From Parcubacteria group bacterium (GTDB lineage: Bacteria; Patescibacteriota; Minisyncoccia; 2-02-FULL-40-12): a stretch of DNA of 64,000 nt. This document shows, in pieces, positions 2,195 to 24,915 of this stretch. A program made the translations under genes and the position numbers. Within the stretch, counting starts at the first letter, position 1; every line of letters begins with the position of its first letter. The notes beneath the pieces were generated by a model. It was not told the DNA's origin and searched no databases. It saw nothing but the letters and a program-made list of their open reading frames with translations. Location of the stretch: NCBI GenBank assembly GCA_016186395.1, contig JACPLU010000003.1, forward strand, positions 11,883 through 75,882, written 5' to 3'.

Positions 2195-2241
2195 CTGGAG
2201 CCCGAAGCGCCAGTCAATGACGGCAATAACCATAATTGTCC

Positions 2242-2466: not shown

Positions 2467-2529
2467 AAGTAACAATGTTGAGCGCAATTCCTTTCCGGGT
2501 AAGTTACGGAACTTGCCCCATGAAGAAGT

Positions 2530-3780: not shown

Positions 3781-4148
3781 TTCTAGGGTTTCATCAGGAC
3801 AGTGCCTGGTGGACAGTTTGAATGGGGCGTTTCCCTCCTAAAGAGTAACGGAGGGGTCCATAAGGTACCCTAGTCCCGGATGGAAATCGGGACGATAGTG
3901 TAAAAGCATAAGGGTGCTTGACTGCAAGGCAAACGTGCCGCGCAGGTGCGAAAGCAGGGTTTAGTGAACCGACCGTGGCTGGTAGGAGCGCGGAAGATTA
4001 TCGGATAAAAGCTACTCCGGGGATAACAGGCTAGTACCGCCCGAGCGTCCATAGCGACGGCGGTGTTCGGCACCTCGATGTCGGCTCGGCTTATCCTGGC
4101 GGTGAAGAAGCTGCCAAGGGTTGGGCTGTTCGCCCATTAAAAAGCTAC

Positions 4149-5703: not shown

Positions 5704-5834
5704 AAAGACTAATTTGGCGATAATGCCGAGTGTGTCCCACCTCTGGTTTGTTTACAAGCCTTAATCCATTCCGAACAGAGAAGTGAAATCACTCAGGGCC
5801 GATGGTAGTTCGAGCTTAGCTCGAGCCAGAGTAG
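5704..5834 (+). rRNA. rrf: 5S rRNA, with a roughly 17-nt expansion in the helix III / loop B region
   Basis: Carries the 5S blocks gtcccacct, ccattccgaacagagaagtgaaa and ggccgatggtag, and ends in agagtaggtcgtcgccag. It lies about 55 bp after the 23S end. Confidence 0.7.
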
Positions 5835-6014
5835 GTCGTCGCCAGATTAGTCTTTTTAATTTGCTCTGTCACCAGGTCCAGCATAGCCACGCACCTTTTG
5901 TAAAACAAAAGGTGCGAGAGTACAAAAAATTAGTGCTGGGCTCCCTGTCCTGTCCGGCAGGCGGGGATGCGGGGCTTCTTGCAATAAAACAGATATTCGC
6001 GGTACGATTGAAGC

Positions 6015-6791: not shown

Positions 6792-7919
6792 ATGAAACAT
6801 GAGTCGTGCATCAAAAGGTTTAAAGATGTTTCATGTTTCATGTTTCATGATTTGAGAAAATTAGATTGGTGGCTTTTGACCCCTGTACTCGCTTTATTTT
6901 TAGCGAGTCTTTTAAACTTATACGGCATCGGAGGTTTTGATTCTTTCTTTATAAAACAACTTATTTTTGTATTAGTCGGTCTTGTTCTGTTATTATTTTT
7001 TGTTAGTATTGATTTTAGAATCTTTAGGGAATCAAGTATATTACCATCATTACTTTATGTTGCGTCTCTAATATTTTTATTCGGCACTCTATACTCTTCA
7101 GAAGTTCGCGGTATTAAAGCCTGGTTTTTTATAGGATCTTTTGGGTTTGAACCATCTGAAATTACAAAGTTAGCTTTAATATTATTTCTAGCTAAGTTTT
7201 TTTCGAGTAACGGCGGGCAAAGAACTAACCAACCCTTCTCATTGGGGATATCTTTGATATATACCCTAATTCCTATTGGCTTCATACTTTTACAACCAGA
7301 TTTTGGTTCGGCAGCAGTTTTAGGCGCTATATGGCTAAGTGCGTTAATGAATTTTAAAATCAAAAAGACACATATGCTATTTTCGACAGGTGTTTTGGTG
7401 TTGCTTGGTATTGTGATTTGGATTTTTATGCTCGCGCCGTATCAAAAAGCTAGATTTACTGCTTTTTTAGATCCGTTGGAAGATCCGCGCGGTTCCGGTT
7501 TTCAGAATCTTCAAGCTCAAATTTCAGTTGGTTCCGGAAACTGGTTGGGTTACGGTGTACAAAATGCTACTCAAGTTAAACTTGGTTATTTGTCAGAGCC
7601 AAGAAATGATTTTGCATTTGCGGCCTTTGCCCAACAGTTTGGTTTTTTAGGTACTTCTTTGGTCGTAATTTTGTATGGTTTATTTTTATATAGACTGTCC
7701 TCCATAGGGATATTTACAAAAGACCGATTTGTTCATATATTTGTTTTTGGATTTTTAATTTTTATTTCTACTCATTTAATTATTAATATTGGAATGAATA
7801 TCGGCGTTTTGCCTGTCACAGGAATTCCACTATCCTTTTTTAGTTATGGTGGGAGTCATCTATTAACTTTGATGTCTGGGCTTGGCATTGTTCAAAGTAT
7901 AAAGGTTCATACTTCTTAA
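6792..7919 (+). CDS. SEDS-family peptidoglycan glycosyltransferase (FtsW/RodA)
   Basis: Ten-TM SEDS architecture, with ...DFAFAAFAQQFGFLGTSLV... matching the FtsW/RodA conserved block. An alternative in-frame start at 6840 (MFHDLRKLDWW) lies inside a heptamer repeat array. Confidence 0.85.
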   Translation: MKHESCIKRFKDVSCFMFHDLRKLDWWLLTPVLALFLASLLNLYGIGGFDSFFIKQLIFVLVGLVLLLFFVSIDFRIFRESSILPSLLYVASLIFLFGTLYSSEVRGIKAWFFIGSFGFEPSEITKLALILFLAKFFSSNGGQRTNQPFSLGISLIYTLIPIGFILLQPDFGSAAVLGAIWLSALMNFKIKKTHMLFSTGVLVLLGIVIWIFMLAPYQKARFTAFLDPLEDPRGSGFQNLQAQISVGSGNWLGYGVQNATQVKLGYLSEPRNDFAFAAFAQQFGFLGTSLVVILYGLFLYRLSSIGIFTKDRFVHIFVFGFLIFISTHLIINIGMNIGVLPVTGIPLSFFSYGGSHLLTLMSGLGIVQSIKVHTS

Positions 7920-7929
7920 CTGGGGTTAT

Positions 7930-7976
7930 GTTCGGGCGATCATACGTCCAGGGCGTATGATCGCCCGAACATTTTG
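7930..7976 (+). terminator. Hairpin terminator after ftsW/rodA
   Basis: gttcgggcgatcatacg tccaggg cgtatgatcgcccgaac is a 17-bp perfect stem, followed by attttg. Confidence 0.6.
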
Positions 7977-8368: not shown

Positions 8369-11300
8369 TTGAGTCGTTGCAACTTTTTGCAAAAGAAAAA
8401 TCTCTCAAAATTTTTACCGGAAGTTGCCGAAATACCAAATCTTATAGAGATTCAGTTAGAATCTTTTAATTGGTTGACAAAGGTTGGGCTTCGCGAGCTT
8501 TTTACCGAGGTTTCTCCTATTGAAGATTGGACAGGGGAAGAATATGAATTACATTTTGTTGATTATAGAATTGAAGAACCGAAGTTAGATCAACAAACTT
8601 CTAAAGAAAAAAATATGACTTTTGAGTCTCCGTTGAGGGTAAAGCTTAAATTAATAGACAAGAAAATAGGAGCATCAAAAGAACAGGAAATTTATCTGAG
8701 TGATTTTCCTTTAATGACTGAAAGGGGAACCTTTATTATTAACGGAATTGAACGTGTTGTAATTTCTCAATTAGTTAGGAGTCCAGGCGCATTCTTTGTT
8801 CTTACTAAGGAAAACCGTTTTAGAAAACTCTTTGGCGCAAAAATTATACCTTCACGTGGAGCTTGGTTGGAATTTGAAACCGATGACTCCGGTGTGATTA
8901 GCGTAAGAATTGACAGAAAGAGAAAGGTTGCCGCAACAGCATTGTTGCGGGCTTTTGGTTATGGCACCGACGCAAAGATTAAAGAATTATTTGGATCAGA
9001 TGAGAAAATAATGCAATATGTTGCGCCTACCTTAGTGCAGGATCCATCTTCTTCGGAAGAAGAAGGTTTGGTGGAGATTTACAAACGCATTAGACCGGGT
9101 GACAGAGCTACGGTCGATAACGCCAGACAGATGGTTCATAATATGTTCTTTAATTTCAGTCGATATGATTTATCAAACGTTGGAAGACATAGGATGAATC
9201 AAAGATTTAATGGAAGTTTTCCTCTTGATGAAAAAAATAGAGTTTTAAAGCCGGAAGATATAGTAGAGGTTATGAAAGAGATTATAAGATTGAACAATGA
9301 TCCTCAAGCCGAACAAGATAATATTGATCATTTATCAAACAGAAGAGTAAAAACTATTGGTGAACAACTTCAAGGTAAATTAAGGATCGCTCTTGCAAGA
9401 ATTGAACGTATTGTGAAAGACAGAATGAGTACATTTGAGGTTGAAACAATCGTGCCAGCCCAGCTGATTAATTCTCGTCCTTTTAATGCCGCACTGAAAG
9501 AATTTTATGCTTCTGGTCAGCTCTCACAATTTATGGATCAGACTAATCCCTTATCTGAACTTGAGCATAAACGCAGGCTGTCAGCCTTGGGTCCCGGGGG
9601 ATTGTCTAGAGAAAGAGCGGGATTTGATGTTCGTGATGTCCACCCGAGTCACTACGGACGTATTTGTCCGATTGAGACTCCGGAAGGGCCAAACATCGGG
9701 TTAGTCGGTCACTTAGCAAGCTTTGCAAAGATTTCTCCCCTCGGATTTATCACTACTCCTTATAGAAAAGTTGAAAAAGGAAAGGTTTTGGATGACATAA
9801 TTTATATGGATGCGGCTGAAGAAGAGAAATTTGTAATTGCACAGGCCGGTATTAATATTGATTCTAATGATAAAATTTTAGATAAAATGGTTGCCGCGAG
9901 GGTTAATGGGGAACCAAGTTTTGTTCATGTAAGCGAGGTGGAGTTTATTGACGTGTCTCCCAAGCAGCCATTTTCTGTTGCTACTTCTCTAATTCCATTT
10001 TTAGAGCATGATGACGCAAATCGCGCTTTGATGGGATCTAATATGCAACGTCAGGCGGTTCCACTTGTCCGAACTCAAGCGCCATTAGTTGGAACCGGAA
10101 TGGAAAACAGGGTAGCTAAAGATTCCGGCATGGTTGTTGTCGCAGAAGACAATGGAGTTGTTAATTCAGTTGACGGTTCAAAGGTGGTCATCAAAACTGA
10201 TGCCGGTAAAACTAAGACTTATAATTTGTTAAAGTTTGCAAAATCAAACGCTTATACATCTATTAACCAAAAGCCTTTAATTGAGCCTGGTGAAAGAGTT
10301 AAGAAGGGTCAAGTTATTGCAGATGGTCCATCTACGGATAATGGCGAGTTGGCTTTAGGCCAAAATCTTTTGGTGGCCTTTCTTTCTTTTGAGGGTGCCA
10401 ACTTTGAAGATGCCATAGTTATATCCGAACGTTTAGTAAAAGAAGATACATTTTCGTCTATTCATATAGAGGACTATACAATAGATGTAAGAGAGACAAA
10501 ATTAGGTCCGGAAGTAATAACTTGTGATATCCCAAATGTAAGCGAAGAGAGGTTAAAGGATTTGGACAGCCAAGGAATTGTTAGAGTTGGGGCGGAAGTG
10601 AGATCACAAGATATTTTAGTCGGAAAGATTTCTCCAAAAGGTGAAGGTGATTTAACCCCAGAAGAAAGATTACTTCGGGCTATTTTTGGTGAGAAATCAA
10701 GAGATGTGAAAGATACCTCTTTGCGTCTTCCTCATGGTAAACAAGGAAGGGTTGTGGGTGTTAAGATTTTTTCGCGCGATGAGGGGTATAAATTGCCAGC
10801 AGGTGTTATGCAGACAATACAAGTTTCAATAGCTCAACGTAGAAAAGTTCAAGTTGGTGATAAACTTGCTGGAAGACACGGTAATAAAGGGGTAATATCG
10901 ACCATTTTGCCAGAAGAGGATATGCCGTTTTTACCAGATGGGCGTCCTGTTGATATTGTTTTAAGTCCTTTGGGTATTATCTCTCGTATGAATATAGGTC
11001 AGATTCTTGAAACTCATTTGGGATGGGCAGCAGACAAATTAAATTATCGAGCGGTAGTTCCTTCAATGGGCGGACCGACAGAGGCCGCTATCAAAGAGGA
11101 ACTTAAGAAAGCGGGTTTACCAGAAAATGGAAAGATTCAGCTTTATAATGGGAAAACAGGTACGCCGTTTGATCAGGAGACTACTGTTGGCATAATTTAT
11201 TTTATGAAATTGGGACATTTAGTTGAAGATAAGATTCATATGCGAGCCATAGGGCCATACTCATTGATTACACAGCAGCCATTAGGAGGAAAGGCCCAAT

Positions 11301-11533
11301 TTGGCGGCCAAAGATTTGGAGAGATGGAAGTATGGGCTCTTGAAGGATATGGAGCGGCTTATACATTGCAAGAGATGTTAACCATAAAGTCAGATGATGT
11401 AGTCGGAAGAGCCAAAACATATGAAGCAATCGTGAACAACGAAGAAATAAAGGCTCCGCATATACCCGAATCTTTTAAGGTGTTATTGTCAGAAATTAAA
11501 GGTTTGGGATTAGATGTGGAATTACAAGAATAA
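8369..11533 (+). CDS. rpoB: DNA-directed RNA polymerase beta subunit
   Basis: Full-length RpoB homology ([23 protein letters not shown], the NMQRQ region). Uses a TTG start, at 8369 or 8387; there is no ATG after the in-frame TAG at 8336. Confidence 0.95.
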
Positions 11534-11605: not shown

Positions 11606-14600
11606 TTGGACTTTAGCTCAATTCGTGTAAAACTTGCTTCGCCAGAAGATATCTTAAACTGGTCACATGGAGAGGTAACAAAGCCGGAAACCATAAACTA
11701 TAGGACTCAAAGACCAGAGCCCGAGGGTTTGTTTTCGGAAAAGATTTTCGGTCCACAAAAAGACTGGGAATGTTATTGCGGTAAATATAGGAGAATAAGG
11801 TATAAGGGAATTATTTGTGATCGTTGCGGGGTAGAGGTTACTCGTTCTATAGTTCGACGTGAAAGAATGGGACATATTAGTTTGGCGGCTCCAGTCGCTC
11901 ATATTTGGTTTTTGCGCGGAGTACCAAGCAGAATGGCGATGTTGCTTGATTCATCTTTACCGGAATTGGAAAAAGTAATTTATTTTGCGGCCTATATAGT
12001 TACCAGAGTTAATGAAGAAGCTAAAACAGAAGCAATGAAAAAACTTGAGAGTGAGTTTCGTTCGGCAATGGCTATCTTAAAGAAGAAAGGGAATGACGAA
12101 AAGGAATTAGAAAAATTGAGAGCAATTAAAGAGCGTGAACGGCTTCTGCTTAGAAATATTCAAAAATATCAGATTCTTTCAGAAGTTGACTATCGAGAGC
12201 TTTCGTTGAAATATGCGGAAGTTTTTGAGGCCGGGATTGGTGCTGAAGCGGTGAAAAAATTGCTTTCAGAAATTGACTTGAATAGTTTGGCAATAGATGT
12301 CGAAAATAAACTTACTTCGGTTGATAACCCATTCTTGCAAAAGAAGATAGTAAGGAGATTAAAGTTGCTTAAAGGATTGGCGAAAGCCGGTATTAGGCCA
12401 GAATGGATGTTTCTTGATGTCATTCCGGTTATTCCACCTGATCTTAGACCAATGGTTCAGTTAGATGGTGGTCGTTTTGCCACATCGGACCTGAACGATC
12501 TTTATCGAAGAGTAATAAATCGGAATAACCGGTTAAAACACCTTATTGAATTAAGAGCGCCAGAAGTCATAACCAGAAACGAGAAAAGAATGTTGCAAGA
12601 AGCAGTAGACTCTTTAATAGATAATGCAATGAGAAGGGGACAGACAATTACCACTTCACAAGCTGGCCAGCGAAGAGCATTAAGGTCTTTGGCCGATATG
12701 TTAAAGGGAAAACAAGGAAGATTTAGACAGAACCTTTTAGGTAAAAGGGTTGATTATTCTGGACGTAGTGTAATCGTTATCGGACCAGAGTTGAATTTTG
12801 ACCAATGTGGTTTGCCAAAACACATGGCATTGGAACTTTTTAAACCTTTTGTAATTCAGAAATTAAAGGAAAGGGGAATAATTCATAACATTCCTGGAGC
12901 AAGACGACTTATTGAACAGGAAAGCCCCGAAGTTTGGGAAGCGTTAGAGGAGGCTATAAAAGATAAATTAGTTCTTCTTAATCGAGCTCCAACTTTACAT
13001 AGATTGGGAATTCAGGCTTTTCGTCCTATTCTTCACGAAGGTAAGGCGATCAGAATTCCGGCCATGCCAACTCATGCTTTTAACGCTGACTTTGACGGTG
13101 ACCAAATGGCTGTTCATTTGCCCTTAACCAAAGAGGCACAGGAGGAAGCCAAAAATTTGATGCTTTCTTCTAAGGGAATTCTAAAACCGGCCACTGGTCG
13201 TCCCATTGCTACGCCGACTAAAGATATTGCTTTTGGGATTTATTATTTAACTCTTGGAATTGACGGATTAATTGGTGAGGGGAAGGTTTTCGGTTCTCCG
13301 GGGGAAGCATTGATGGCATATGATAACAAATGTATTGAACTCCATTCTAAAATAAAAGTACGTTTTAATTCAAATTTAGAGACGGCAACTGACGAGAATA
13401 TAAAAAGTGAATTGGTTTTAACTACTGTTGGGAGGATTTTATTTAGTAAGATTTTACCAAGCGGAATGGCATATGTAAATCAAGCTTTAAACAAGTCTGA
13501 TCTTGAAAAAATAGAAGCAACAATTTTAGAGAAGTATGGAGAAACAATGGCAGCGGATTTTTTGAACAACGTTAAAGATCTTGGTTTCTTTTTCGCAACC
13601 GTTTCCGGTATATCGTGGTCTATGGATGATCTTCGTATTCCGGAGGAAAAACATCAAATTGTTGCTAAAGCTGATGAGTTGATTGAAAAAAATCACGAAC
13701 TTTATGAGCAAGGTCTTTTAACGGATCTTGAGCGAAAAATTAAAGCTATCGAAATATGGAATGACGTTAAGTCTGAAATTGGGAAATCAGTTAAAAAGGC
13801 TTTAAGATCTGATGATCCGGTTAAGATTATAGTAGATTCAAAGGCTCGAGGAAGTTGGGATACGGTTAACCAGCTTATGGGTATTAGAGGTTTATTTGCT
13901 AATCCAGCCGGAGAAATTATTGAACTGCCCGTGAAAAATTCTTTCAAAGAGGGCTTAAACGTTTTGGAATATTTTATTTCTACTCATGGTGCCCGAAAAG
14001 GATTAGCCGATACAGCCTTGCGTACGGCTACAGCAGGCTATCTTACTCGTAGATTAGTTGACGTAGCTCAAGATATCGTTGTTAGGGAGGAAGATTGTAA
14101 AGACAGCGAGGGCTATGATATTTATCGTGAAGATGGTAACTATACTGGAGAAACTTTGGGTGGCAGGGTTAGAGGAAGATTTGCCGCAGAAACAATAAAA
14201 TCAGATACAGGCGAAATTATAGCTAAGAAAGGAGAGTTAATAGATAAGGCTAAGGGTGACAAGATGGATTTAGCAAAGCTTAACCAAGTTCGGGTTCGTT
14301 CGGTTATAACTTGTAAGTCAAGAATTGGTTTGTGTCAGACTTGCTATGGTTATGATTTGGGTAGAAATAAAATTGTAGAACTCGGAGAATCGGTAGGAAT
14401 AGTAACGGCTCAAGCTATTGGAGAACCAGGCACCCAGCTTACTATGAGAACATTCCATACCGGTGGAGTTGCCGCATCTGGAGATATTACGTTGGGTTTG
14501 CCCCGTGTTGAGGAAATTTTTGAAGCCCGTATTCCCAGGTCACCAGGTGTAATTTCTGACGTTGACGGCAGGGTGGTCTCTATAGAAGAAAAGGGAAAGC

Positions 14601-15247
14601 AGAAGATTGTAAAAATTGAAATTACCAAAACTTCTAAAGAAGGTGGAGAAGTTGTTGCAAAACCTAGCGGTGAAATTAGAGAAATGATATTTCATCATCA
14701 CATTGCTTTAACTATGAAAGAGGGCGATGTTGTAATAAAAGGACAACCTCTTTCGGAAGGCCATCTTGATTTAAAAGAATTATTTATGATTACGGGCCGT
14801 AATAAAGCAGCCGTTGCTAGATACATAACCAGGGAAATTGAAAGCATTTACTTTACTTCTGGTGAGGGAATTCACGACAAACACGTTGAATTAATTATTC
14901 GTCAGATGTTTTCTCGCGTTAGAATTATAGATTCTGGAGATACGGACTTATTGGCTGGGGAAATAATGGAGGTCGGTCTAGTTTTAAATGAAAATGACAG
15001 AGTAATTGAAAAAGGGAAGAAGCCTGCTCAATTTGAACAATTATTGCTTGGTATTACCAAAGTATCTTTAACCACAGAAAGCTTTTTGTCAGCAGCTTCG
15101 TTCCAAGAGACGGCCAGAGTTTTAATTGATGCGTCAATTATGGGTAAAGAAGATCGGTTAAGGGGACTAAAGGAAAATGTAATTATCGGTCGTTTGATTC
15201 CTGCGGGGACGGGGTATCGGGTAAGAGAAGAAGGTGGTTTAGTGTAG
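11606..15247 (+). CDS. rpoC: DNA-directed RNA polymerase beta' subunit
   Basis: LASPEDILNWSHGEVTKPETINYRT and NADFDGDQMAVH are beta' hallmarks. Uses a TTG start. Confidence 0.95.
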   Translation: MDFSSIRVKLASPEDILNWSHGEVTKPETINYRTQRPEPEGLFSEKIFGPQKDWECYCGKYRRIRYKGIICDRCGVEVTRSIVRRERMGHISLAAPVAHIWFLRGVPSRMAMLLDSSLPELEKVIYFAAYIVTRVNEEAKTEAMKKLESEFRSAMAILKKKGNDEKELEKLRAIKERERLLLRNIQKYQILSEVDYRELSLKYAEVFEAGIGAEAVKKLLSEIDLNSLAIDVENKLTSVDNPFLQKKIVRRLKLLKGLAKAGIRPEWMFLDVIPVIPPDLRPMVQLDGGRFATSDLNDLYRRVINRNNRLKHLIELRAPEVITRNEKRMLQEAVDSLIDNAMRRGQTITTSQAGQRRALRSLADMLKGKQGRFRQNLLGKRVDYSGRSVIVIGPELNFDQCGLPKHMALELFKPFVIQKLKERGIIHNIPGARRLIEQESPEVWEALEEAIKDKLVLLNRAPTLHRLGIQAFRPILHEGKAIRIPAMPTHAFNADFDGDQMAVHLPLTKEAQEEAKNLMLSSKGILKPATGRPIATPTKDIAFGIYYLTLGIDGLIGEGKVFGSPGEALMAYDNKCIELHSKIKVRFNSNLETATDENIKSELVLTTVGRILFSKILPSGMAYVNQALNKSDLEKIEATILEKYGETMAADFLNNVKDLGFFFATVSGISWSMDDLRIPEEKHQIVAKADELIEKNHELYEQGLLTDLERKIKAIEIWNDVKSEIGKSVKKALRSDDPVKIIVDSKARGSWDTVNQLMGIRGLFANPAGEIIELPVKNSFKEGLNVLEYFISTHGARKGLADTALRTATAGYLTRRLVDVAQDIVVREEDCKDSEGYDIYREDGNYTGETLGGRVRGRFAAETIKSDTGEIIAKKGELIDKAKGDKMDLAKLNQVRVRSVITCKSRIGLCQTCYGYDLGRNKIVELGESVGIVTAQAIGEPGTQLTMRTFHTGGVAASGDITLGLPRVEEIFEARIPRSPGVISDVDGRVVSIEEKGKQKIVKIEITKTSKEGGEVVAKPSGEIREMIFHHHIALTMKEGDVVIKGQPLSEGHLDLKELFMITGRNKAAVARYITREIESIYFTSGEGIHDKHVELIIRQMFSRVRIIDSGDTDLLAGEIMEVGLVLNENDRVIEKGKKPAQFEQLLLGITKVSLTTESFLSAASFQETARVLIDASIMGKEDRLRGLKENVIIGRLIPAGTGYRVREEGGLV

Positions 15248-15480
15248 AAAACTCAATTATGAATTTCTTTTCGTATTCAACATCAACAAATAGTATTCGG
15301 TAAATCTTAATTTTCTGACAAAATTTTAGTATCCGTTTGCCATTACCAAAAACCAGGCATAAATGCCTGGTTTTTGGTAACATGTTTTCCGACTAAAATT
15401 TTGTTCTCATAAAATTAATGATTTGTCTCATCTATTTGTATTGATGTTTCATAAAGCAGAAATTTATAATTGAGTTTTCT
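15248..15480. repeat. Imperfect long inverted repeat of about 230 bp, centred on the rpoC terminator
   Basis: agaaaactcaattatgaatttct... (15243-15300) and its reverse complement agaaatttataattgagttttct (15455-15480). Inner arms aaattttgtcagaaaattaag and aaattttgttctcataaaattaat also pair. Confidence 0.6.
15343..15380. terminator. Bidirectional-type hairpin terminator after rpoC, at the centre of a large palindrome
   Basis: ttaccaaaaaccaggca..tgcctggtttttggtaa. The A/T runs form part of the stem. Confidence 0.65.
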
Positions 15481-15887
15481 ACCGAGAAATAAAAATAAAG
15501 TATGGTTATTTATATGTGACTCAAGTAAATTCAAAAATAATAACAAAACTTCTACGCTAAGCAAGCTTCTTGGGCACGCAAAATTCACCAGCGATGAAAA
15601 GGGGTTAGTATAGATGTAATTTATTCTGTTTCTTCAATTATTTTCGCCAATAAATAATTCTCATTATTTTTAAATTGGCGACACGCACCTCCTCGCTCCT
15701 GTTGTAGACGAGGAGGTGTCATTGTGTTAACGCCAATTTATCAAACAATTTCGGTTATTTATTTTTGGCTCAAATAGATTCAGAAACACAATAAATTATA
15801 TCTGCTACGAGCATAAAACTAACTATTAAATTCAGAAATAATAATAAAACTTCTACATGGATAAATTGATAAATTATTGGAAATAAA

Positions 15888-15932
15888 AAAAGAGGCCGCG
15901 GTTCCTTGTGCAGTGGAACCGCGGCCGGGGAA
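15888..15932 (-). terminator. GC-rich hairpin terminator on the minus strand, downstream of the small peptide gene
   Basis: ggccgcggttcc...ggaaccgcggcc, followed on the minus strand by 7 T (aaaaaaag on plus, 15880-15887). Confidence 0.6.
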
Positions 15933-15946
15933 AGGTGGGGGGATGG

Positions 15947-16021
15947 TTAGGAGCACTTCGCCAAGAAAAGAAATAAGGCGAAGGCCAGAAGAAACAAAAA
16001 TGGTGTAAAAACGTGCTTCAT
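15947..16021 (-). CDS. Unannotated 24-aa hydrophobic peptide, MKHVFTPFLFLLAFALFLFLAKCS
   Basis: RBS aaggagg 7 nt upstream of ATG (16019-16021, minus strand). Stop TAA at 15947-15949, with a terminator immediately downstream. Too short for the six-frame ORF track. Confidence 0.45.
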   Translation of the reverse strand: MKHVFTPFLFLLAFALFLFLAKCS

Positions 16022-16196
16022 TTTCTTTCCTCCTTTGGGTCTTTCTTGAAAGTAGGGCTGAATTGTCATACTTTCATTATCTTTATTATACTACTTTTTA
16101 TAGTAAAAAGTCAAGGCAAAAACTTAGTCAGTAAACCACAAGCCTTTTGTCTTTAAATACCATTGAAATCTAAATCTGGAATAGTATAATAGTTAG

Positions 16197-18404
16197 GTGG
16201 CTAAATCTAAAAAGGTTGTTAAATTGGTGCCGGAAAAAACGCAGTGGTTTGATCTGTCTCAAGAAACTAAAAATGGAATTTGGGTGGTATTAAGTTTTAC
16301 GGCCGCAGTTTTATCTGTTTTGGCCTTTTTGCATAAGGCCGGTACAGCAGGAGACATATTTTCAAGTTTTTCCAAAACTTTATTTGGCTGGGGTTTTTTT
16401 GTTATTCCGATTGCTTTTGCACTTTTGGGCTCGGCTTTTTTAAGGTCGTTTTCAAAAAAAGCATCTGTTGGGGCACTTTTTGGAACTGCTCTGATGGTTT
16501 TGGGTTTTTTAGGTGTTTTATTTGTTATTCGTGACGTTGATACTCAAGTTCGGTTAGTTCAGGGAGGGTATCTTGGAACAATTTTTGGGTTTCCACTCCT
16601 TAAACTCACAGGCTTTACCGCTTCATTGGTTGTTTTGTTAGCCGTAATTTTTGTATCATTTTTAGTTGCTTTAGATATTCCGTTTCATTCGTTAATTTTT
16701 AGAAAAAAGGAAGAAGGGGGAACAGATGAAGAGTCAAAGCTTAGCGGGGAATTAAATGAAAAATTAATTATTAAGCAGGGTTCTCAAGTGGTTGGTTCAA
16801 AGCCGATGTTTGAGGCCAAATCAATTCAACAAGATAAGAAGGTCGTTTCTGCATCGGTCCGGACGAAAGACGACGAAGAAAATGAATTTTCTATTCGAAC
16901 GGCGCTTAATAGAGAGTGGAAATTGCCTCCGCTAGAATTTTTGCACGCTGACAGCGACTCTCCAAAGGCGGGTGATATTGCCGCAAATGCCAGTATTATT
17001 AAAAGAACTTTGGCTAATTTCAGTATTGACGTTGAGATGGGTGAAGTTAACGTAGGACCAACCGTTACTCAATATACTTTGCGTCCGGCGGTAGGTGTAA
17101 AAATTGCAAAGATTACAACTTTGCAAAACGACCTTTCGTTAGCCTTAGCCGCTCATCCTTTACGTATTGAAGCTCCAATTCCTGGAAAGTCTCTAGTCGG
17201 TGTCGAGGTACCCAATAAAAAGTCAGCCCTGGTTGGTCTAAGAAATATTATTGAGTCCGAAGAATTTCAAAAAAGTCCCCACTTTTTGGCTTTGGGAGTT
17301 GGCCGTGATGTGGCTGGCTATCCTTTAGTTGCCGGATTAGAACGAATGCCCCATCTTTTAATAGCCGGAGCTACTGGGACAGGAAAATCAGTTTCTATTA
17401 ATACAGTACTTTTATCGCTTTTATACCGGCACTCTCCTGATATTTTAAAACTGATTATGATTGACCCGAAAAGAGTTGAACTTAGTTTGTATAACGGCAT
17501 ACCTCATTTAATAACTCCGGTAATTGTTGATTCTAAAAAGGCAATCAACGCTTTAAGGTGGGCAGTAAAAGAAATGGAGCGGCGTTATGAGCTTTTATCA
17601 GGTATCGGTTCACGCGATATATTTTCATATAATACAAAACAAGCCGCGGCTAAGAAGTCTTTGATCCCTTTTGTGGTCATCGTTATAGATGAATTGGCTG
17701 ATATTATGGCGGCTTATGGTCGTGATGTTGAAGGGGCAATTGTTCGTCTTGCTCAAATGGCGCGAGCAGTCGGGATTCATTTAATTGTTTCAACCCAACG
17801 GCCGTCGGTAGAGGTCATCACAGGTCTTATTAAAGCAAATATTACTTCGCGTATTGCTTTTCAGGTTGCTTCACAAGTTGACTCTCGAACAATTTTAGAT
17901 AATGCCGGCGCTGAAAAATTATTAGGCAACGGGGATATGCTTTATCAAGCAGGGGATGTAAGTAAACCAAAGCGTGTTCAGGGGGGTTATGTTTCAGAGA
18001 AAGAAGTAAAAGATGTGGTTAGATTTTTGAAAGACCAGGATTATGAAGCGACTCTGACAGCTGCGCCGGTTGGTGAAGATATAACTCAACCTCACTCTAA
18101 TATTAGTGACTTTACTGACTCTCACGACGACGATTATCAAGGCGGGGACGATCCATTATTTGAAGATGCCAAAGAAGTTGTTCTGCAAGCCAAGAAAGCA
18201 TCTTCTTCTTTGCTTCAGCGTAGACTACGCGTAGGTTATGCCCGCGCCGCACGTCTGATTGATATGCTTGAAGAAGCGGGTATAGTTGGCCCGGGCGAGG
18301 GCGCAAAACCAAGAGAAATTTTGGTTGGTACTCCAATTAGTATGGTCTCAACCGGCGAACCAATAGCCGTAGAGGAAGAAGAATCTCAAGATAATTTGAT
18401 ATAG
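16197..18404 (+). CDS. ftsK: DNA translocase FtsK/SpoIIIE
   Basis: N-terminal TM segments, a linker, then the ATPase domain with IAGATGTGKS (Walker A) and VVIVIDELAD (Walker B), and a C-terminal gamma-like domain. Confidence 0.9.
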   Translation: MAKSKKVVKLVPEKTQWFDLSQETKNGIWVVLSFTAAVLSVLAFLHKAGTAGDIFSSFSKTLFGWGFFVIPIAFALLGSAFLRSFSKKASVGALFGTALMVLGFLGVLFVIRDVDTQVRLVQGGYLGTIFGFPLLKLTGFTASLVVLLAVIFVSFLVALDIPFHSLIFRKKEEGGTDEESKLSGELNEKLIIKQGSQVVGSKPMFEAKSIQQDKKVVSASVRTKDDEENEFSIRTALNREWKLPPLEFLHADSDSPKAGDIAANASIIKRTLANFSIDVEMGEVNVGPTVTQYTLRPAVGVKIAKITTLQNDLSLALAAHPLRIEAPIPGKSLVGVEVPNKKSALVGLRNIIESEEFQKSPHFLALGVGRDVAGYPLVAGLERMPHLLIAGATGTGKSVSINTVLLSLLYRHSPDILKLIMIDPKRVELSLYNGIPHLITPVIVDSKKAINALRWAVKEMERRYELLSGIGSRDIFSYNTKQAAAKKSLIPFVVIVIDELADIMAAYGRDVEGAIVRLAQMARAVGIHLIVSTQRPSVEVITGLIKANITSRIAFQVASQVDSRTILDNAGAEKLLGNGDMLYQAGDVSKPKRVQGGYVSEKEVKDVVRFLKDQDYEATLTAAPVGEDITQPHSNISDFTDSHDDDYQGGDDPLFEDAKEVVLQAKKASSSLLQRRLRVGYARAARLIDMLEEAGIVGPGEGAKPREILVGTPISMVSTGEPIAVEEEESQDNLI

Positions 18405-18568: not shown

Positions 18569-19651
18569 TTATTCGTTAAGCCAGAACCAAAATTGATTTT
18601 TAAGTTTCTGAGACAATTTATATGAATCAGCGTGGCTCAAAACACCGAGATATGATTGCAAGGATTGTTCGAGGGTTTCATTTGTTATAACTCCCGATTT
18701 ATACTCCGCAATTTTTTTATTTAATTTTTTAAATATCCGTTGTCTTGTTTTAGCTCTAAGAATTCGATAATGAGGGAAAACTATATACCCGAGAAAATCT
18801 ATTCCCCGTTGAAATTTATTGATAGAAATCTTTTTTGGATGAATTTCCAGTTGTAGTCTTTGCCTTAGGAAAGAACTTATTTTTGGGATTAATCCTGATA
18901 GGTAATCACGACTGTCAGAAACTATGGTAAAGTCATCGGTATAACGGCAATAATATTTCACTTTTAAATCATGTTTAATAAACTGATCAGATTCGTTCAT
19001 ATAGATGTTTGCGAAAAGCTGTGAGGTTAAATTGCCTATTGGTAGACCCTTTCTGGCGAATAAATTTGAGCAAGAAGACAGAAAACTTCTGATAACCTTT
19101 TCAAGTAGCCAGATGGTATCTGTGTCTCGAATCCGTTTCTTCAGTATAGAAATCAAAATTTTATGATCTACCGCATCAAAAAACTTTTTAACATCACATT
19201 TAAGAATGAAGCAAGGTTTCGTTCCATTGCCGGATACTTTTCTGGTCATCTGTTCAAGGACGCGGATTCCTTTGTGGCTTCCGAATCCAACCCGACAAGA
19301 AAAAGAATTTTGAATGAATGTTTGTTCAAAAATCGGATTGGCTACCGAAAAGATGGCATGATGCAAAATTCTATCCCGAACCGTGGCTTTGTGGATATGC
19401 CTTTGTTTTGGGTCTCGGATGTAGAAACCAGTATATTGTCCGTGTTCATAAGTCTTATTCTGAAGTTCTCGACGAAGTTTAAAAATATTTTCTTCAAGAC
19501 AAAATTCAAATCTTTGAACATCAACTTTATTCCTCTTGTCGCTTTTGAAAGTATCCCACGCTGAAAATAGGTTTTCCAGCGAGATTATTTTATTAAACAA
19601 GTTTTTATAGGTTTTCATAATAAAATTAAATGAACGAATTCGATACCCCAA
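18569..19651 (-). CDS. Diversity-generating retroelement reverse transcriptase
   Basis: RT motifs are present: KCDVKKFFDAVDH (motif A), LPIGNLTSQLFANIYMN, where the [I/L]GxxxSQ form is typical of DGR RTs rather than the group II intron QGxxxSP, and YCRYTDDF (YxDD). The length of about 350 aa fits. The true start is probably MKTYKN at 19618. Confidence 0.85.
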   Translation of the reverse strand: MGYRIRSFNFIMKTYKNLFNKIISLENLFSAWDTFKSDKRNKVDVQRFEFCLEENIFKLRRELQNKTYEHGQYTGFYIRDPKQRHIHKATVRDRILHHAIFSVANPIFEQTFIQNSFSCRVGFGSHKGIRVLEQMTRKVSGNGTKPCFILKCDVKKFFDAVDHKILISILKKRIRDTDTIWLLEKVIRSFLSSCSNLFARKGLPIGNLTSQLFANIYMNESDQFIKHDLKVKYYCRYTDDFTIVSDSRDYLSGLIPKISSFLRQRLQLEIHPKKISINKFQRGIDFLGYIVFPHYRILRAKTRQRIFKKLNKKIAEYKSGVITNETLEQSLQSYLGVLSHADSYKLSQKLKNQFWFWLNE

Positions 19652-19977
19652 TATTTATAAAATCCTACGATTTATACAAGCTATTTTATAGTTTCCGTAC
19701 CCTGGTTCCCAAAAATGACCGCTACACAATCTGGCAAAGGTGCGAAAATTTAATGCTGGATATAATCGATGGAATTCTATATGCCAGCCAAATTTCAAAA
19801 ATTGAGAAACTCCCGATTCTTGAAAAAACAAGCATGAAGTTAAGTCTCCTGCGTGTTTTTGTTCGGCTTATGAAAGATACCAAAGCGATAGATAATAAGA
19901 AATACGTATCACTCGAAACCATTATCGACGAAATTGGCCGTCAGCTTGGAGGCTGGATAAAATCAACTAAAGGATAA
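19630..19977 (+). CDS. avd: DGR accessory variability determinant (Avd-like four-helix-bundle protein)
   Basis: 115 aa. The C-terminus IDEIGRQLGGWIKSTKG resembles Bordetella phage Avd IAEVGRILGSWIARVNRKG, and the N-terminal region VPKNDRYTIWQRCEN resembles IPRKHGVAREMFLKC. Transcribed divergently from the RT. Confidence 0.65.
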   Translation: MNEFDTPIFIKSYDLYKLFYSFRTLVPKNDRYTIWQRCENLMLDIIDGILYASQISKIEKLPILEKTSMKLSLLRVFVRLMKDTKAIDNKKYVSLETIIDEIGRQLGGWIKSTKG

Positions 19978-20023
19978 CAGAATACCCGCCAACTGGCGGG
20001 TATTCTTAATGAGGAGCGACTTC

Positions 20024-20148
20024 GAAAGGAACCCAGACGCGGAGCCATAGTTGTCGTTCGGGTTGCTTACGTCGTTCGTGTTGAACTTGACCTTGTCGTC
20101 GTTGAAGTTGAAGTACGGCGCGCTGCTGAACCTGCCATCAGCGTCTGG
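20024..20148 (-). repeat. DGR template repeat (TR)
   Basis: 125 bp homologous to 20620-20744. All 15 mismatches are T on plus (A on the coding/minus strand) in this copy. The translated frame is Asn-rich (NFNDDKVKFNTNDVSNPNDNY), typical of AAC-rich TRs. The 70-aa ORF 19963-20175 is therefore not a gene. Confidence 0.85.
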
Positions 20149-20613
20149 AAATTGCTTTTGCCCATCTATAGTCACCGGATATCGAGGCTTGCCACCTTAA
20201 CGGTCTATATCCTCTCAATCCTGAATTTTATTCGGGAGCATCTCGCAAAAGAATCTCCGCTGGGCGGAAGCAAGCAGTAGTCTCCTCAATTTGGCACTCT
20301 CGGAGAATCCGTGAACGCTCCGACTCTGGCCGTTTGATCTCTTTTTTGAAGAGAGAGTTCGGTGACGGCAATCCGAGAGCGATTCTAGTCGGGCTAAAGC
20401 GCCGACTAAGAAACTTCGCCCAGATAAACTGCCGTTCATTAACCTAAGCTCACAGGAAGTATACAAATAATCCAATTAAAAGTGAATATATAAAAAGAAA
20501 AAGAGGGCCACCCACGATGGAACTGTGGATAACCCTCTCAAAAATTTCGCCGAACTCAAGGATCAAGAAACAACGAATCAAAAGATCCAAGTGTTCGAGC
20601 GATCAAGGCCCTA

Positions 20614-21471
20614 CTACTGCGAAAGGAACCCAGACGCGGAGCCAAAGCTGTCGTCCGGGTCGCTCACGCCGTACGCGTTGAACTTGACCCTGACGTCGTC
20701 GAAGAGGAAGTACGGCGCGCTGCCGAACCTGCCATCAGCGCCTGGACTGTACTCATCGCCTGGGCAGTCGATGTGCAACTGTTCCCATTGAATGAGCCGT
20801 TCCGGATGAGACAGAAGCATGCAGTCGACGATGAACGAGCCGAGCCCGAACTCGTGAGGAGCATAGACCACGCGCATCCTTCGCACGGACCGACCCCGAT
20901 GGGTCAGGCCGAACTGGGCTGGGATCAGTAGAAAGTCGCCCTTCTGCTTTTCGCCGATCATCTGGAGCGCGACGGCTGTCCGTTCGGAGAGCCGCAGGTA
21001 TTTCGGGCCGAGCGCGCCTTTGCGGTAGTTGTGGAAGGTGCGGGTCTTTCCGATCAGGTCGAGAACCTTCTCGACAGCCTCGTTGTACGAGGACGCAACC
21101 TTCTCCCACCGCGGAACGGCGAACCAGCCTTCCGCGCCAGCGGGCAGAGCCGGAAGCTCCTTGGAGCAGGCCAGCACCGAACTGGTGTTGAGACCGTTGA
21201 AGTGCTTGGAGAGCTCCACGAGCTGTTCGCAGACCGGCTTCACGGCGTACCCTTGCGGATAGCCGTAGTTGGACTTCACCTCTTCGTTGGCGAAGAACGG
21301 ACTCGCCGTGACGAGAGGTGCCGAGGTCACTTCCTTCTCCTCGACGATGGACTGCAGGTTCCTGGCGACGAAACTCGGCTCGAGCGTCCCTTCCATGAGG
21401 CGGCGCTGGACTTCCCACATGCGGCGGGAAATCGTTCCGAGAGTGTCGTCTGCGACGATGTGAGTCGTCAT
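20614..21471 (-). CDS. DGR target (variable) protein, 285 aa, with a C-terminal VR-encoded ligand-binding region
   Basis: Good RBS aaggagg upstream of the start. The C-terminal 40 aa (...PGADGRFGSAPYFLFDDVRVKFNAYGVSDPDDSFGSASGFLSQ) is paralogous to the TR translation. About 58% GC, unlike the surrounding sequence. No signal peptide was detected. Confidence 0.8.
   Translation of the reverse strand: MTTHIVADDTLGTISRRMWEVQRRLMEGTLEPSFVARNLQSIVEEKEVTSAPLVTASPFFANEEVKSNYGYPQGYAVKPVCEQLVELSKHFNGLNTSSVLACSKELPALPAGAEGWFAVPRWEKVASSYNEAVEKVLDLIGKTRTFHNYRKGALGPKYLRLSERTAVALQMIGEKQKGDFLLIPAQFGLTHRGRSVRRMRVVYAPHEFGLGSFIVDCMLLSHPERLIQWEQLHIDCPGDEYSPGADGRFGSAPYFLFDDVRVKFNAYGVSDPDDSFGSASGFLSQ
20620..20744 (-). 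repeat. DGR variable repeat (VR) at the 3' end of the target gene
   Basis: Matches the TR except at template-adenine positions. It ends 4 nt from the target stop codon. The GC-rich 3' end ctccgcgtctgggttcctttc is conserved between TR and VR (IMH-like). Confidence 0.85.
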
Positions 21472-21707: not shown

Positions 21708-22778
21708 TTGGCTATTGTTATAGTAATTTCCATGGCAAAAAAACAGGATACTTCCCCAAAAACTTTAACGGAAAAGCAAAAAGATAAAGACGGAAAGAAT
21801 AAAAATATTGATCTTGCGGTAAAAGAAATAAAAGAAAAATATGGTGACGGGTCTATTATGCGTTTAGGAGAAGCGCGTAAAGTTAATGTAGATGTAATTC
21901 CGACCGGCTCTATTTCGCTTGATGCGGCTTTGGGTGTTTGGGGAATGCCAAGAGGAAGAATTATAGAAATTTATGGACCGGAATCAAGCGGGAAAACAAC
22001 TCTTTCTTTGCATGTTATTGCTGAAGCTCAAAAAATGGGCGGTTCAGCTGCATTTGTTGATGCAGAGCATGCTTTGGACCCTGAATATGCAAAAAAGGTG
22101 GGTGTAAAGATAGATGATCTTTTAATATCTCAACCGGATACAGGTGAGCAGGCTCTAGAAATAGTTGAAACTCTTGTACGTTCTGGCGCAGTGGACGTAA
22201 TAGTAATTGATTCTGTTGCCGCTTTGACTCCGAAGGCAGAAATTGAGGGAGAAATGGGGCAGCAGCATATGGGGCTTCAAGCAAGACTTATGTCTCAAGC
22301 GCTTCGTAAGCTTACAGCAATCGTAGGGAAGACAAATGTTGTGCTTATATTTTTAAACCAGATTCGGCAAAATATCGGAGTCTTTTACGGAAATCCAGAA
22401 ACAACAACCGGAGGAAAGGCTTTGAAGTTTTATTCGTCAGTTAGAATAGAAGTAAGGCGTGCCGCTCAAGTACAATCTGGTGAAAAAATTATCGGAAATC
22501 GTACAAAAGTGAAAATTGTTAAAAACAAAGTGGCTCCGCCGTTTAGAACTGCCGAGTTTGATATACTGTATGGTGAGGGAATTTCTAAATTGGCGGACTT
22601 AATTAACACAGGAGTAAAATATGATGTTCTTACTCGTTCGGGATCGTGGTATACTTATGGTGATATTAAACTTGGTCAGGGGCTGGAGGGCGCCCGATCG
22701 TTTTTAAAAGAAGATAAAAAACTGGAAAACGAGATCGCTAAGCAAGTAAAAATTAAAATGCAGACAGAAGAAATTTAA
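21708..22778 (+). CDS. recA: Recombinase RecA
   Basis: GPESSGKTT Walker A and a conserved RecA core. The likely true start is MAKKQ at 21732. Confidence 0.95.
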
Positions 22779-23980: not shown

Positions 23981-24421
23981 TTAAATATTTCCCAATATTT
24001 CTTCTAATCTTTTGTCTAATTCTTCTTGTTTTACTTCTACTTTTTCTTCTTGCAGTCGTGGTATTGGTTTAGGTTTGACAACAAATGTTTTCCTTGGCGC
24101 AGGCAGTTGTCCCTCCTTAATCTTTGTGGTTATTAGACTTCTTGTGATTACGCCTATCATTTTTAAGTCATTTGTAATTTCATTAATACTCGAGCTTGGA
24201 GCGGAAAAGTCGATCCAAAAAAAATCACTTATCCCTTGTTTTCTGATAGGATAAGATAATTTTGTTTTATTGTTTTCGGACACTCTAACCACAGTTCCCC
24301 CGTGGTTACTAATTTTTGCCTCAATTTCTCCTATATTCTTTTTAAACTCTTCTTCATTTAAGCCAGTTCTAAGATGCACAGCCAGTTCATAGTTTTTTGT
24401 ATTAATTAATGTTTCTTCCAT
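23981..24421 (-). CDS. rpsF: 30S ribosomal protein S6
   Basis: NYELAVHL...LSYPIRKQ...GISDFFWIDFSAP follows the S6 pattern (YEI..I....L.YPI.K...G.Y). C-terminal extension present. Confidence 0.8.
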   Translation of the reverse strand: MEETLINTKNYELAVHLRTGLNEEEFKKNIGEIEAKISNHGGTVVRVSENNKTKLSYPIRKQGISDFFWIDFSAPSSSINEITNDLKMIGVITRSLITTKIKEGQLPAPRKTFVVKPKPIPRLQEEKVEVKQEELDKRLEEILGNI

Positions 24422-24915
24422 AGTCCAGTATTAGAACCCAGTAGTAGAGTAAAACTCACTACCGGACTTTGCTTCGACAGTATAAGAAGCGAACGAAGTG
24501 AGCGTAGTCCAGCACTAAACAAAGTTTTAGTGCTGGATTTCAGCTGGGCATGTCGTCTCCAGATAATAGCAAATTAGATGTGGATTCGTCAACTTACTGT
24601 GTGCCTTTCCACATCTGCCTTTCCACATCGGGTGTGGAAAGGCGTTGGGATAGGGAGTAATCGTTAATGAGGTACTTGCGTCGAGATTTGATGTGATTTT
24701 CGACATCGCAAGTCGAAGAGGTTTTGTTTGCGGTGTCTTACGACATTCAATGTCGTAAGAGTAAGAAATTTATGAGTTTTGACGATTCAAGACTGTGAAT
24801 TGGATCTCTAGCGGGGGTTGATCCCTAACGGGATCAACCCCCGCCCTTAAGTTTAAGAGTGGGGTTGATAATAGATTTTGGAATTCTTGAGTTTTGGTAT
24901 ATTATCACAAATACT

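Follow-up and report, generated by a model that had tools for sequence, protein, structure and literature searches.

A long-hairpin family and a candidate minus-strand mini-gene in the enlarged rpoC-ftsK spacer of an uncultured bacterium of Patescibacteria

Introduction

Bacterial intergenic regions may be occupied by foldback repeats of the miniature inverted-repeat transposable element (MITE) type, such as the Correia repeats of Neisseria, the ERIC/IRU sequences of enterobacteria and the RUP of the pneumococcus, while the REP/BIME sequences of enterobacteria form local clusters of alternating units near terminators and can stabilise the upstream mRNA. Repeats of a comparable build are described here in the 950-bp spacer between rpoC and ftsK of a window of 64 kb (the whole stretch of DNA analysed, 64,000 nucleotides of contig JACPLU010000003.1), which has a GC content of 37.6% and comes from an uncultured bacterium of Patescibacteria (Candidate Phyla Radiation, CPR). 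The spacer holds two long imperfect palindromes, designated P1 and P2, and, on the minus strand, a small unit (the mini-gene) with an open reading frame (ORF) of 24 codons, sORF24; P2 is related to a long-hairpin element of ~200 nt, named E, found at the same junction in other genomes. The reading proposed, in which we place about even confidence, is that the spacer would be a lineage-specific mosaic of foldback repeats and of a minus-strand mini-gene cassette.

The foldbacks of the window and the E copies resemble the Correia, ERIC and RUP repeats in being non-coding, whole-length imperfect palindromes of the 100-300 bp class, with better-kept termini and a position just after genes, in carrying terminator-like hairpins and outward promoters, and in standing in either orientation, nested in or flanking other DNA. 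They differ from these repeats in being seen at one junction only instead of dispersed, with no target-site duplication, partner transposase or evidence of copy number, while E is kept at one site across deeply diverged genomes. The repeat unit U, which supplies the arms of P2, recalls REP/BIME as a local cluster of alternating orientation between genes and near a terminator, but it is ~75 nt long (versus ~35), is not palindromic, and exists in four copies at one locus versus hundreds genome-wide. As to the peptide of sORF24, those type I toxins that associate with the membrane are hydrophobic, of less than 60 amino acids (aa), with a predicted transmembrane helix (PMC8309996), and type I systems are so far known from Proteobacteria, Firmicutes and Tenericutes only (PMC12390103); no paper linking them to Patescibacteria was found in the literature searched.

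The E family at the rpoC-ftsK junction

The spacer between rpoC (11606-15247) and ftsK (16197-18404, with the start codon GTG at 16197) measures 950 bp in the window versus 94 bp in the relative locus L096 and 213 bp in L095, and, since the relatives without an inserted gene have a spacer of 94-213 bp, some 750-850 bp of it are extra. The element E was defined from the copies in L095 and L090/L093, whose FtsK is 65-66% identical to that of the window. In L095 one foldback of ~210 nt fills the entire spacer, while in L090/L093 two inverted copies flank an inserted peptidase S9 gene (L090 1234-3955, equal to L093 7234-9955). In L090 the stop codon of rpoC marks the start of one of them, while the second stops 46 nt short of ftsK; the rpoC-proximal copy is nested within an extra pair of E-type termini, and the arrangement resembles a composite or invertible cassette. 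The orientation of E is plus in L095, both in L090 and minus in the window. The element is absent from L122, L094 and L097 and is represented by a mini-hairpin in L096, yet the FtsK of L122 and L096 is 88% identical to that of L090. No E-type copies were found outside the junction in the 64 kb of the window, 22 kb of L093 and 12 kb of L095. Between two genomes E is 80-85% identical, with identities of 60% at the rpoC four-fold degenerate sites and 78% for FtsK; an identity so far above that of the four-fold sites indicates that E is either constrained or recently spread.

The copies of E have terminal inverted repeats of ~27 bp and a one-sided bulge of 37 nt. The consensus fold of three copies contains 74 pairs, and the five changes confined to one side of a pair all give G-U when read in the orientation of the element; folding also favours this strand over its complement, by 9-11 kcal/mol in 3/3 copies; one side hairpin is swapped among the copies, with a different stem and the same loop. 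The L095 copy found no match in Rfam (E <= 10), and no Rfam family describes E. The 6S RNA (RF00013 and its relatives) is similar in forming an imperfect, rod-like hairpin of ~200 nt whose sequence is little conserved from phylum to phylum, but P2 lacks the central bubble, E has the one-sided bulge instead, and neither has a promoter or terminator of its own; the 6S assignment was rejected, as P2 has no bubble and no Rfam 6S model matched at E <= 10.

P2 is a foldback of ~209 bp (15604-15812, minus strand) with a predicted folding energy of -75.8 kcal/mol (z = -9.5). The covariance model R1, built from the relatives' copies of E only, with P2 left out, gave 51 bits on the minus strand of P2 (E 1.6e-13, local search) versus 5 bits on the plus strand, the match covering 15612-15802, and P2 was the only non-training match in 979 kb of the window and the relative loci together (50.9 bits, E 1.2e-10). 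Blocks common to P2 and E include UUUCUGA, AAAUAACCGAAA, AAAUUGGCG/CGCCAAUUU, UGAGAAUUAUUU and GAAGAAA, and among the unpaired blocks kept in their alignment are UUUCUGA, AAAUAACCGAAA, UGAG and GCGA. In the alignment of four sequences (identity of P2 with E, 54-59%) pairing holds in 95% of the cells and 25 of the 74 pairs are changed on both sides, compared with 6.9 +/- 2.3 such pairs in shuffles (0/500 reach 25) and 1-5 pairs, at 35-45% pairing, with slid partners; these figures are to be read with the caveats that the alignment was fitted to the model, that the four sequences come from three genomes, and that arm-to-arm copying could mimic the signal. From the R1 score and the compensatory pairs it follows that P2 is a true member of the E family. 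E is a predicted long-hairpin family, previously undescribed, that is tied to the rpoC-ftsK junction in Patescibacteria. A second covariance model, R2, includes P2 and was built from the model-based alignment, since the trimmed MAFFT alignment misaligned the 3' arm of P2. The 23 matches to the conserved E/P2 motif in viral contigs were all rejected by the covariance model.

The tip of P2 (15686..15719) is a GC-rich hairpin, CACCTCCTCG...CGAGGAGGTG, in which a sequence like the anti-Shine-Dalgarno (anti-SD) is paired with an SD-like one; it is confined to the window copy, the E copies bearing another tip. The direct repeats of 30 nt at 15526-15555 and 15827-15856, equal at 28/30 positions, are the best-matching portion of the ~75-nt unit U, which has four copies (nhmmer, E = 1e-14 for U1). 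U2 (15603-15670, inverted) and U3 (15739-15813, plus) are the left and right arms of P2, U1 (15489-15563, plus) repeats, as a solo unit, the outermost 75 nt of the right arm, and U4 (15817-15856, plus) is a partial solo arm that contains the second 30-nt repeat; U1 and U4 are probably remnants of local duplication and deletion of P2 arms. The profile of the four copies finds nothing further in the 64 kb. The G-U pairs across P1 and P2 favour the plus strand, 9 to 1, and those within P2 stand 4 to 1 against the orientation of E; a strand inference from these pairs is confounded by the strong GC skew and conflicts with the orientation of E.

All the spacer comparisons rest on distant relatives. 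The nearest FtsK among the GTDB species genomes, labelled as Minisyncoccia, Parcubacteria or Patescibacteria, is 62-63% identical, and in 5.8 billion predicted proteins the identity outside the own strain is <=67%. The own strain was found in four Logan samples (SRR12113420, -22, -24, -30), with an identical spacer and a single nucleotide polymorphism, located in ftsK. With the own-strain spacers identical and the next FtsK only 67% identical, fine-scale comparative tests on the spacer are impossible.

The P1 foldback and the end of rpoBC

P1 (15244-15482) is an imperfect foldback of 239 bp, the first bases of which, GTAG, hold the rpoC stop codon. Its arms, 15244-15361 and 15362-15482, agree at 97/112 ungapped positions, and the outer 25 bp, the terminal inverted repeats, are 96% complementary. 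For the RNA a hairpin of ~120 bp is predicted, with -94.1 kcal/mol and, relative to 200 dinucleotide shuffles, a z of -14.6, and in a GC-corrected folding scan of 240-nt segments P1 was the top structural outlier of the 64 kb, at -6.9 standard deviations, above the rRNA segments. At the tip (15343-15380) lies a perfect stem of 18 bp with the core CCAGGCAT/ATGCCTGG, flanked by A5 and T5, which has the GC-rich stem-loop and the T-run at the unit end that characterise Rho-independent terminators and is the sole plus-strand terminator-like site reported in the spacer by the terminator scan. From these features we infer that the P1 tip ends the rpoBC operon as a bidirectional terminator. Bidirectional intrinsic terminators likewise have a perfect GC-cored stem between an A- and a T-tract, with the difference that the stem of P1 extends over ~100 more imperfectly paired bases per side, from the rpoC stop outward. 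In the relatives rpoC is also trailed by A/T-flanked terminator hairpins, of 17-24 bp, and in the locus L044 an inverted-repeat structure of 190 bp stands 6 nt past the rpoC stop.

A promoter-like site in the right arm of P1 (15441..15470, plus strand; TTGATG-18-TATAAT, 10/12) faces outward. A transcript from it, if active, would cross P2 and run antisense to the mini-gene; the terminator scans found no plus-strand terminator between this site and ftsK.

No sequence kinship of P1 with P2 was detected by the Smith-Waterman comparison, which remained at noise level. Against the model R2, P1 reaches 27 bits, with the few shared blocks UUUCUG, AUACAAAUA/UAUUUGU and AAGAAA, while scores of 20-28 bits are also obtained for unrelated long hairpins at other places in the window (filters off). 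A place for P1 in the E family is therefore unproven, P1 being inseparable from generic long hairpins, although it is like the E1 copy of L090 in size class and in its position, both beginning at the rpoC stop codon. There is no second copy of P1 in the 64 kb, and its terminal-repeat pattern had 0 matches in viral contigs and 4 in JGI metagenomes, none of them homologous. A JGI metagenome contig matched by chance, L087 (830-1072), carries a dense array of TTGTAGAAAACT in two orientations, iteron-like and unrelated to P1.

Well-folding intergenic regions of the window (-3 to -4.7 standard deviations; 20-28 bits) also include 41363-41523, 44952-45182, 54551-54747, 30681-30864, 7924-7975, 24421-24850 and 62401-62800, none with an Rfam match; the hairpin at 44952 begins at the stop codon of the upstream gene, as P1 does.

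Of the structures in the spacer, the original prediction had recognised a palindrome of ~230 bp around the rpoC terminator, which is present with a length of 239 bp and the terminator at its tip, and the two direct repeats, which stand with a small correction of coordinates; its nested hairpin at 15668-15737 is real as well, but is only the core of the ~209-bp P2.

The minus-strand mini-gene sORF24

The mini-gene begins with a predicted promoter that had been missed earlier (16085..16114, minus strand; TTGACT-18-TATAAT, 11/12), from which an RNA of ~190 nt, ~16078 to ~15886, with a leader of ~57 nt, is predicted. The SD sequence GGAGG (16029..16033) is separated by a 7-nt spacer from the ATG at 16021, and sORF24 (15947..16021) runs through 24 codons to the TAA at 15949..15947, encoding MKHVFTPFLFLLAFALFLFLAKCS. 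The terminator (15886..15926) begins 20 nt past the stop codon with a perfect 12-bp stem (15926..15894; 10 G-C pairs) and a 9-nt loop, followed by CTCTTTTTTT with T7; it is one-directional and, by strict criteria, the strongest canonical terminator in the 64 kb. A sigma-70-type promoter would thus give an RNA of ~190 nt with a strong SD sequence and a 24-codon ORF, from which a single-pass hydrophobic peptide would be made: the peptide has a run of 18 hydrophobic residues, V4-A21, predicted as a single hydrophobic helix of signal-peptide-like character.

Promoter matches of at least 11/12 occur five times in the window (128 kb of strand), and 4/5 are intergenic and co-oriented shortly upstream of a gene, namely the mini-gene, ftsK, the gene at 54832 and, at ~196 bp, the target gene of a diversity-generating retroelement (DGR). 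The joint scan for an SD sequence, a hydrophobic ORF of 15-45 aa and a terminator had a single match in 916 kb of Patescibacteria sequence, which is sORF24. Given the rarity of the promoter, the rank of the terminator and the joint scan, a chance assembly of the signals is improbable and the mini-gene is very likely a real promoter-to-terminator unit.

The translation of sORF24 would be less certain than its transcription. Against it weigh the pyrimidine-rich strand, which yields Phe/Leu codons and keeps all frames open, and the frequency of SD-preceded small ORFs, ~10 per 10 kb of intergenic DNA. Some 5-mer of the SD sequence precedes at least one candidate in-frame start, looked for within the first 40% of the ORF, in 9/41 long ORFs, and, with most genes lacking one, both the GGAGG and the GC-rich terminator look foreign to the genome; a strong GGAGG is found exceptionally, at the DGR target gene and at small ORFs among others. 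The mini-gene may have been acquired as a small foreign cassette, because its SD sequence and GC-rich terminator are atypical for the genome. The transcript's minimum-energy fold pairs the SD sequence and the AUG with codons 7-12 and leaves the C-rich tract before the terminator single-stranded. No gene is called at sORF24 on the public contig. Independent Logan contigs of different samples share their break points, at 13081, 18501 and 16119, two of them beginning at the last, which lies in the promoter region of the mini-gene; these breaks might be population variants at the junction or mere assembly behaviour.

A second small ORF with GGAGG, likewise unannotated, lies at 29497-29607 (minus strand), directly downstream of the gene 29625-30602, and encodes 36 aa, MIFKILGYWFLILTIVGPLIGVWLSRISKNYPKIKK, with a hydrophobic helix and a basic tail.

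sORF24 is an orphan. No homologue was found in the 5.8 billion predicted proteins (queried with the upstream-extended ORF of 40 aa, 24 aa being too short for the search, and the gene caller rarely reporting ORFs of less than ~30 aa), in the contigs of IMG/VR or the JGI metagenomes, upstream of ftsK in 80 relatives, or in the syntenic relatives L090-L098 and L122 (by the contents of the junction and by the joint scan of 916 kb), while tblastn returned low-complexity noise only, with no paralogue in the window. The original prediction of the mini-gene, with its ribosome-binding site, ATG, TAA and GC-rich terminator, was correct as to the signals, which are exceptionally clear; missing conservation of the peptide had been named there as the refuting outcome, and on this point the prediction fails by its own measure, in a test of low power because there are no close relatives (nearest FtsK 67%).

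The same prediction had likened the peptide to type I toxins, which holds for its size, hydrophobicity and predicted helix (PMC8309996) but is joined by neither a match to the type I toxin families of Pfam and NCBIfam nor an antisense gene. The sole family match is Pfam Lysis_col (PF02402), in its signal-peptide part, with E 0.038 and 14.3 bits against a cut-off of 27, and the test for the lipobox L-[AS]-[GA]-C failed, sORF24 having LAKC with Lys at -1. A convergent or overlapping small RNA (sRNA) promoter, suggested earlier, was not found on the plus strand in or beside sORF24, and, the terminator being one-directional, no antisense RNA gene is evident; the nearest plus-strand candidate is the 10/12 site in the right arm of P1, 420 nt upstream. 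The duplex prediction between the sORF24 mRNA and its neighbours gave z = -3.6 under a crude null model, and such pairing with neighbouring transcripts was judged unconvincing on that account. The structured plus-strand region proposed as the antisense partner turned out to be P2, a foldback of the E family; since this family stands at the same junction in relatives without sORF24, P2 is not a dedicated partner.

Alternative readings of the mini-gene

Three other accounts of the mini-gene were weighed. The minus-strand unit of ~190 nt may be a non-coding or dual-function sRNA with an incidental ORF, its seed being a C-rich tract, CCAUCCCCCCACCUUUCCCC, that lies unpaired immediately 5' of the terminator. 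C-rich sRNAs of Firmicutes pair with G-rich ribosome-binding sites, and the tract of the mini-gene resembles theirs; the predicted fold leaves it single-stranded, the DNA around the ORF is rich in pyrimidines and has all frames open, and in a genome where most genes lack an SD sequence and SD-preceded small ORFs are not rare between genes the GGAGG need not signal translation. However, GGAGG, the ideal spacing of 7 nt, ATG, 24 codons and a terminator come together once in 916 kb, the GGAGG-led membrane-type ORF at 29607-29497 suggests that the genome has SD-led small proteins, and the unit has neither an Rfam match nor an identified target, so that the sRNA is considered unlikely. The account of sORF24 as a membrane-damaging type I toxin, silenced by a plus-strand antisense RNA that possibly arises by read-through from 15441-15470, is clearly less probable still. 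The length of 24 aa, the single helix predicted as hydrophobic and the Lys close to the C-terminus fit the general features of such toxins (PMC8309996), the SD sequence and AUG are sequestered in the minimum-energy fold, the unit is an intergenic island of foreign look with a strong promoter and terminator of its own, and from the promoter-like site upstream no terminator precedes the ORF on the plus strand. In size, single helix, own promoter and terminator, intergenic position and predicted SD sequestration sORF24 is like Ibs, ShoB, TisB, Fst/Ldr and AapA1 (PMC8309996), from which it differs in having no antisense gene, family match, paralogues or conservation, and a single C-terminal Lys instead of a cationic tail. 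A discrete antisense RNA gene would call for an adjoining plus-strand promoter or a bidirectional terminator, and neither is there; the complementarity to neighbouring RNA is weak under its crude null model, the searched sets hold no homologue and the window no paralogue, Pfam and NCBIfam give no toxin family, P2 as the proposed partner is present in genomes without sORF24, and the phyla with known systems are limited (PMC12390103), with no link to Patescibacteria in the literature searched. As it stands, the type I toxin account is unsupported, with a low probability left to it.

Barely credible in comparison is the third account, by which sORF24 would be the leftover 5' end (promoter, ribosome-binding site and signal peptide) of a deleted gene for a secreted protein or lipoprotein, fused to a terminator. 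The n-region (MKH), hydrophobic core and Cys near the end are signal-peptide-like, the lone family match covers the signal-peptide portion of lysis lipoproteins of small size, and the junction is a place where genes are often gained and lost; set against this are the non-canonical lipobox, a Pfam score far under the cut-off, no protein-like continuation in frame past the stop, no divergent secreted-protein gene upstream of ftsK in relatives, and no tblastn match here to the junction genes of other lineages.

Nature of the foldbacks

We favour the reading of the foldbacks as site-restricted DNA doubling as terminators or insulators. P2 would be a diverged copy of E in inverted orientation and P1 a second foldback of like size; foldbacks of this type would be dispensable, MITE-like in a loose sense, and would persist and increase in number locally where rpoBC ends. 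The hairpins would provide or strengthen a terminator and insulator that separates the heavily transcribed rpoBC from ftsK with its own promoter, and the complementarity of the arms would be held by selection or by hairpin-templated repair; both the terminator or insulator role and the mode of repeat spread are what we infer from the build and distribution of the copies. Dispensable or mobile DNA is suggested by the patchiness among close relatives, the occurrence in either orientation, the nesting and duplication in L090 and the position on both sides of an inserted gene, and the traits of MITEs that are present are the short, non-coding sequence with terminal inverted repeats (P1, E) and no credible internal ORF. 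Several observations weigh against this reading. No target-site direct repeat is found at the flanks of P1 (..TTTAGT / CGAGAAA..) or of P2; P1, P2 and U have no dispersed copies elsewhere in the 64 kb and E occurs at the junction only; and a transposase with matching ends did not turn up in passing in the window, where no systematic search was made, so that classical MITE behaviour is not shown. Every relative locus was obtained via FtsK, which biases the sampling, and the sequence of P1 does not tie it to the E family. The supra-neutral conservation, the kept internal-loop bases and the strand asymmetry of 9-11 kcal/mol fit a functional RNA or single-stranded DNA hairpin equally well or better.

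This last point leads to the alternative that E and P2, and P1 by analogy, have a function, either as structured RNAs or as strand-specific hairpins of single-stranded DNA, inherited vertically and frequently lost, e.g., a new non-coding RNA or 3'-untranslated element at the end of rpoBC for termination or RNA processing, or a recombination or capture site. It is the less probable of the two, though it retains substantial weight. It would explain the one syntenic site across genomes with 65-78% FtsK identity, the E identity of 80-85% versus 60% at four-fold degenerate sites, the 25 compensatory pairs together with the kept unpaired blocks, the five one-sided changes of E that are all G-U in its own orientation, the better folding of the own strand in every copy, and the exchange of a side hairpin for another stem with the loop retained; with no Rfam match, such an element would be new. 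A functional element, however, would hardly be expected to vary in orientation relative to rpoC and ftsK as E does, to be absent or reduced in such close relatives as L122 and L096, to have a tip that is not conserved, or to come with no promoter or terminator; arm-to-arm copying in palindromic DNA can yield "compensatory" changes with no selection at the RNA level, the wobble pairs of P2 favour the opposite strand (4 to 1), and the family rests on four sequences from three genomes. A bolder combination, rather unlikely in our estimate, would make E/P2 an undescribed strand-specific RNA or single-stranded DNA hairpin acting as terminator, insulator or cassette-capture site, and sORF24 a captured gene for a membrane-active peptide, possibly the first type I-like toxin of the CPR. 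Candidate junction cassettes are the sORF24 unit in the window, the L090 peptidase gene and additional genes of L094, L097 and L122. At the same junction in L097 (1739-3001), another long inverted-repeat pair, unrelated to E in sequence, flanks a gene for 156 aa of unknown function.

Other explanations for the spacer were rejected. A replication origin or terminus was ruled out, there being no switch of GC skew in the window; a pseudogene remnant was discarded, as tblastn with the ORFs that occupy the junction in other lineages gave no match and the ORFs of the spacer look non-coding. The region 14800-16700 searched against Rfam (E <= 10) returned terminator-shaped noise only, the entire spacer matched no plasmid or phage record, and the direct-repeat, terminator and P2-core patterns had no match in viral contigs.

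Gene context and other features of the window

The gene order in the window is ftsW-rpoB-rpoC-[950 bp]-ftsK-[DGR]-recA, with ftsW at 6792-7919, rpoB at 8369-11533 and recA at 21708-22778. The rpoC stop codon TAG (15245..15247, plus strand) is consistent with the end of RpoC, ...GGLV*, which matches the syntenic L090 (...GKLV*) and L095. The order rpoB-rpoC-ftsK-recA is common to L093, L094, L095, L096, L097 and L122, and ftsW before rpoB is seen in L093, the sole relative locus reaching that far. The predicted ftsK promoter (16163..16196, plus strand; TTGAAA-16-TATAAT, 11/12) leaves 6 nt between the end of its -10 box and the GTG at 16197, so that ftsK appears leaderless, with its own promoter; the ftsK start of L096 is similarly arranged (TTGGCT-17-TACACT-7-ATG), the -35 box lying within the outer stem of E.

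A complete DGR is located between ftsK and recA (18569-21471), with a reverse transcriptase of 360 aa (RVT_1; 18569-19651, minus strand), a template repeat at 20019-20149 and a variable repeat at 20616-20746, in the 3' end of a gene for 285 aa with no Pfam match (20614-21471, minus strand). All 16/16 mismatches between the repeats are A-to-N, and the GC content of the region rises to 50.7% versus the mean of 37.6%. Since little or nothing separates ftsK from recA in relatives, the DGR of the window is an insertion. In L098 (341-1719) a DGR accessory gene (bAvd) and a reverse transcriptase lie directly upstream of ftsK (FtsK P0033), and the flanks of ftsK seem, from these two loci, to attract DGRs repeatedly. 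A retron or DGR link for the hairpins was ruled out, the DGR standing on the far side of ftsK with its own pair of template and variable repeats.

The whole window searched against Rfam at gathering thresholds yielded just the 23S and 5S rRNAs and one tRNA. The 23S rRNA match (393-4234) covers 3842 nt versus 2925 nt of the model, which points to insertions or introns, and includes an ORF of 151 aa (2705-3160) and an inverted repeat (1650-1674 / 1946-1970); the 5S rRNA (5713-5847) is flanked by an inverted repeat of 23 bp. A tRNA-Phe with the anticodon AAA was predicted by ARAGORN at 24951-25025, within a strongly structured spacer and below the Rfam tRNA gathering score.

Significance

A gene-free spacer of 950 bp beside two essential genes is unusual in the tiny, tightly packed genomes of Patescibacteria. 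What is new is that part of it belongs to a predicted long-hairpin family present in no RNA database, the pairing of which is kept through many double substitutions, and that E is found repeatedly at a single chromosomal junction in uncultured lineages of deep divergence. If the foldbacks are selfish DNA, they would be a rare case of a site-restricted foldback in reduced genomes, marking a hotspot of gene turnover, including that of DGRs; if they are functional, they would constitute a new structured element linked to the end of the RNA polymerase operon. Along with them, the small-protein repertoire of Patescibacteria gains in sORF24 a clean candidate, which current gene callers overlook.

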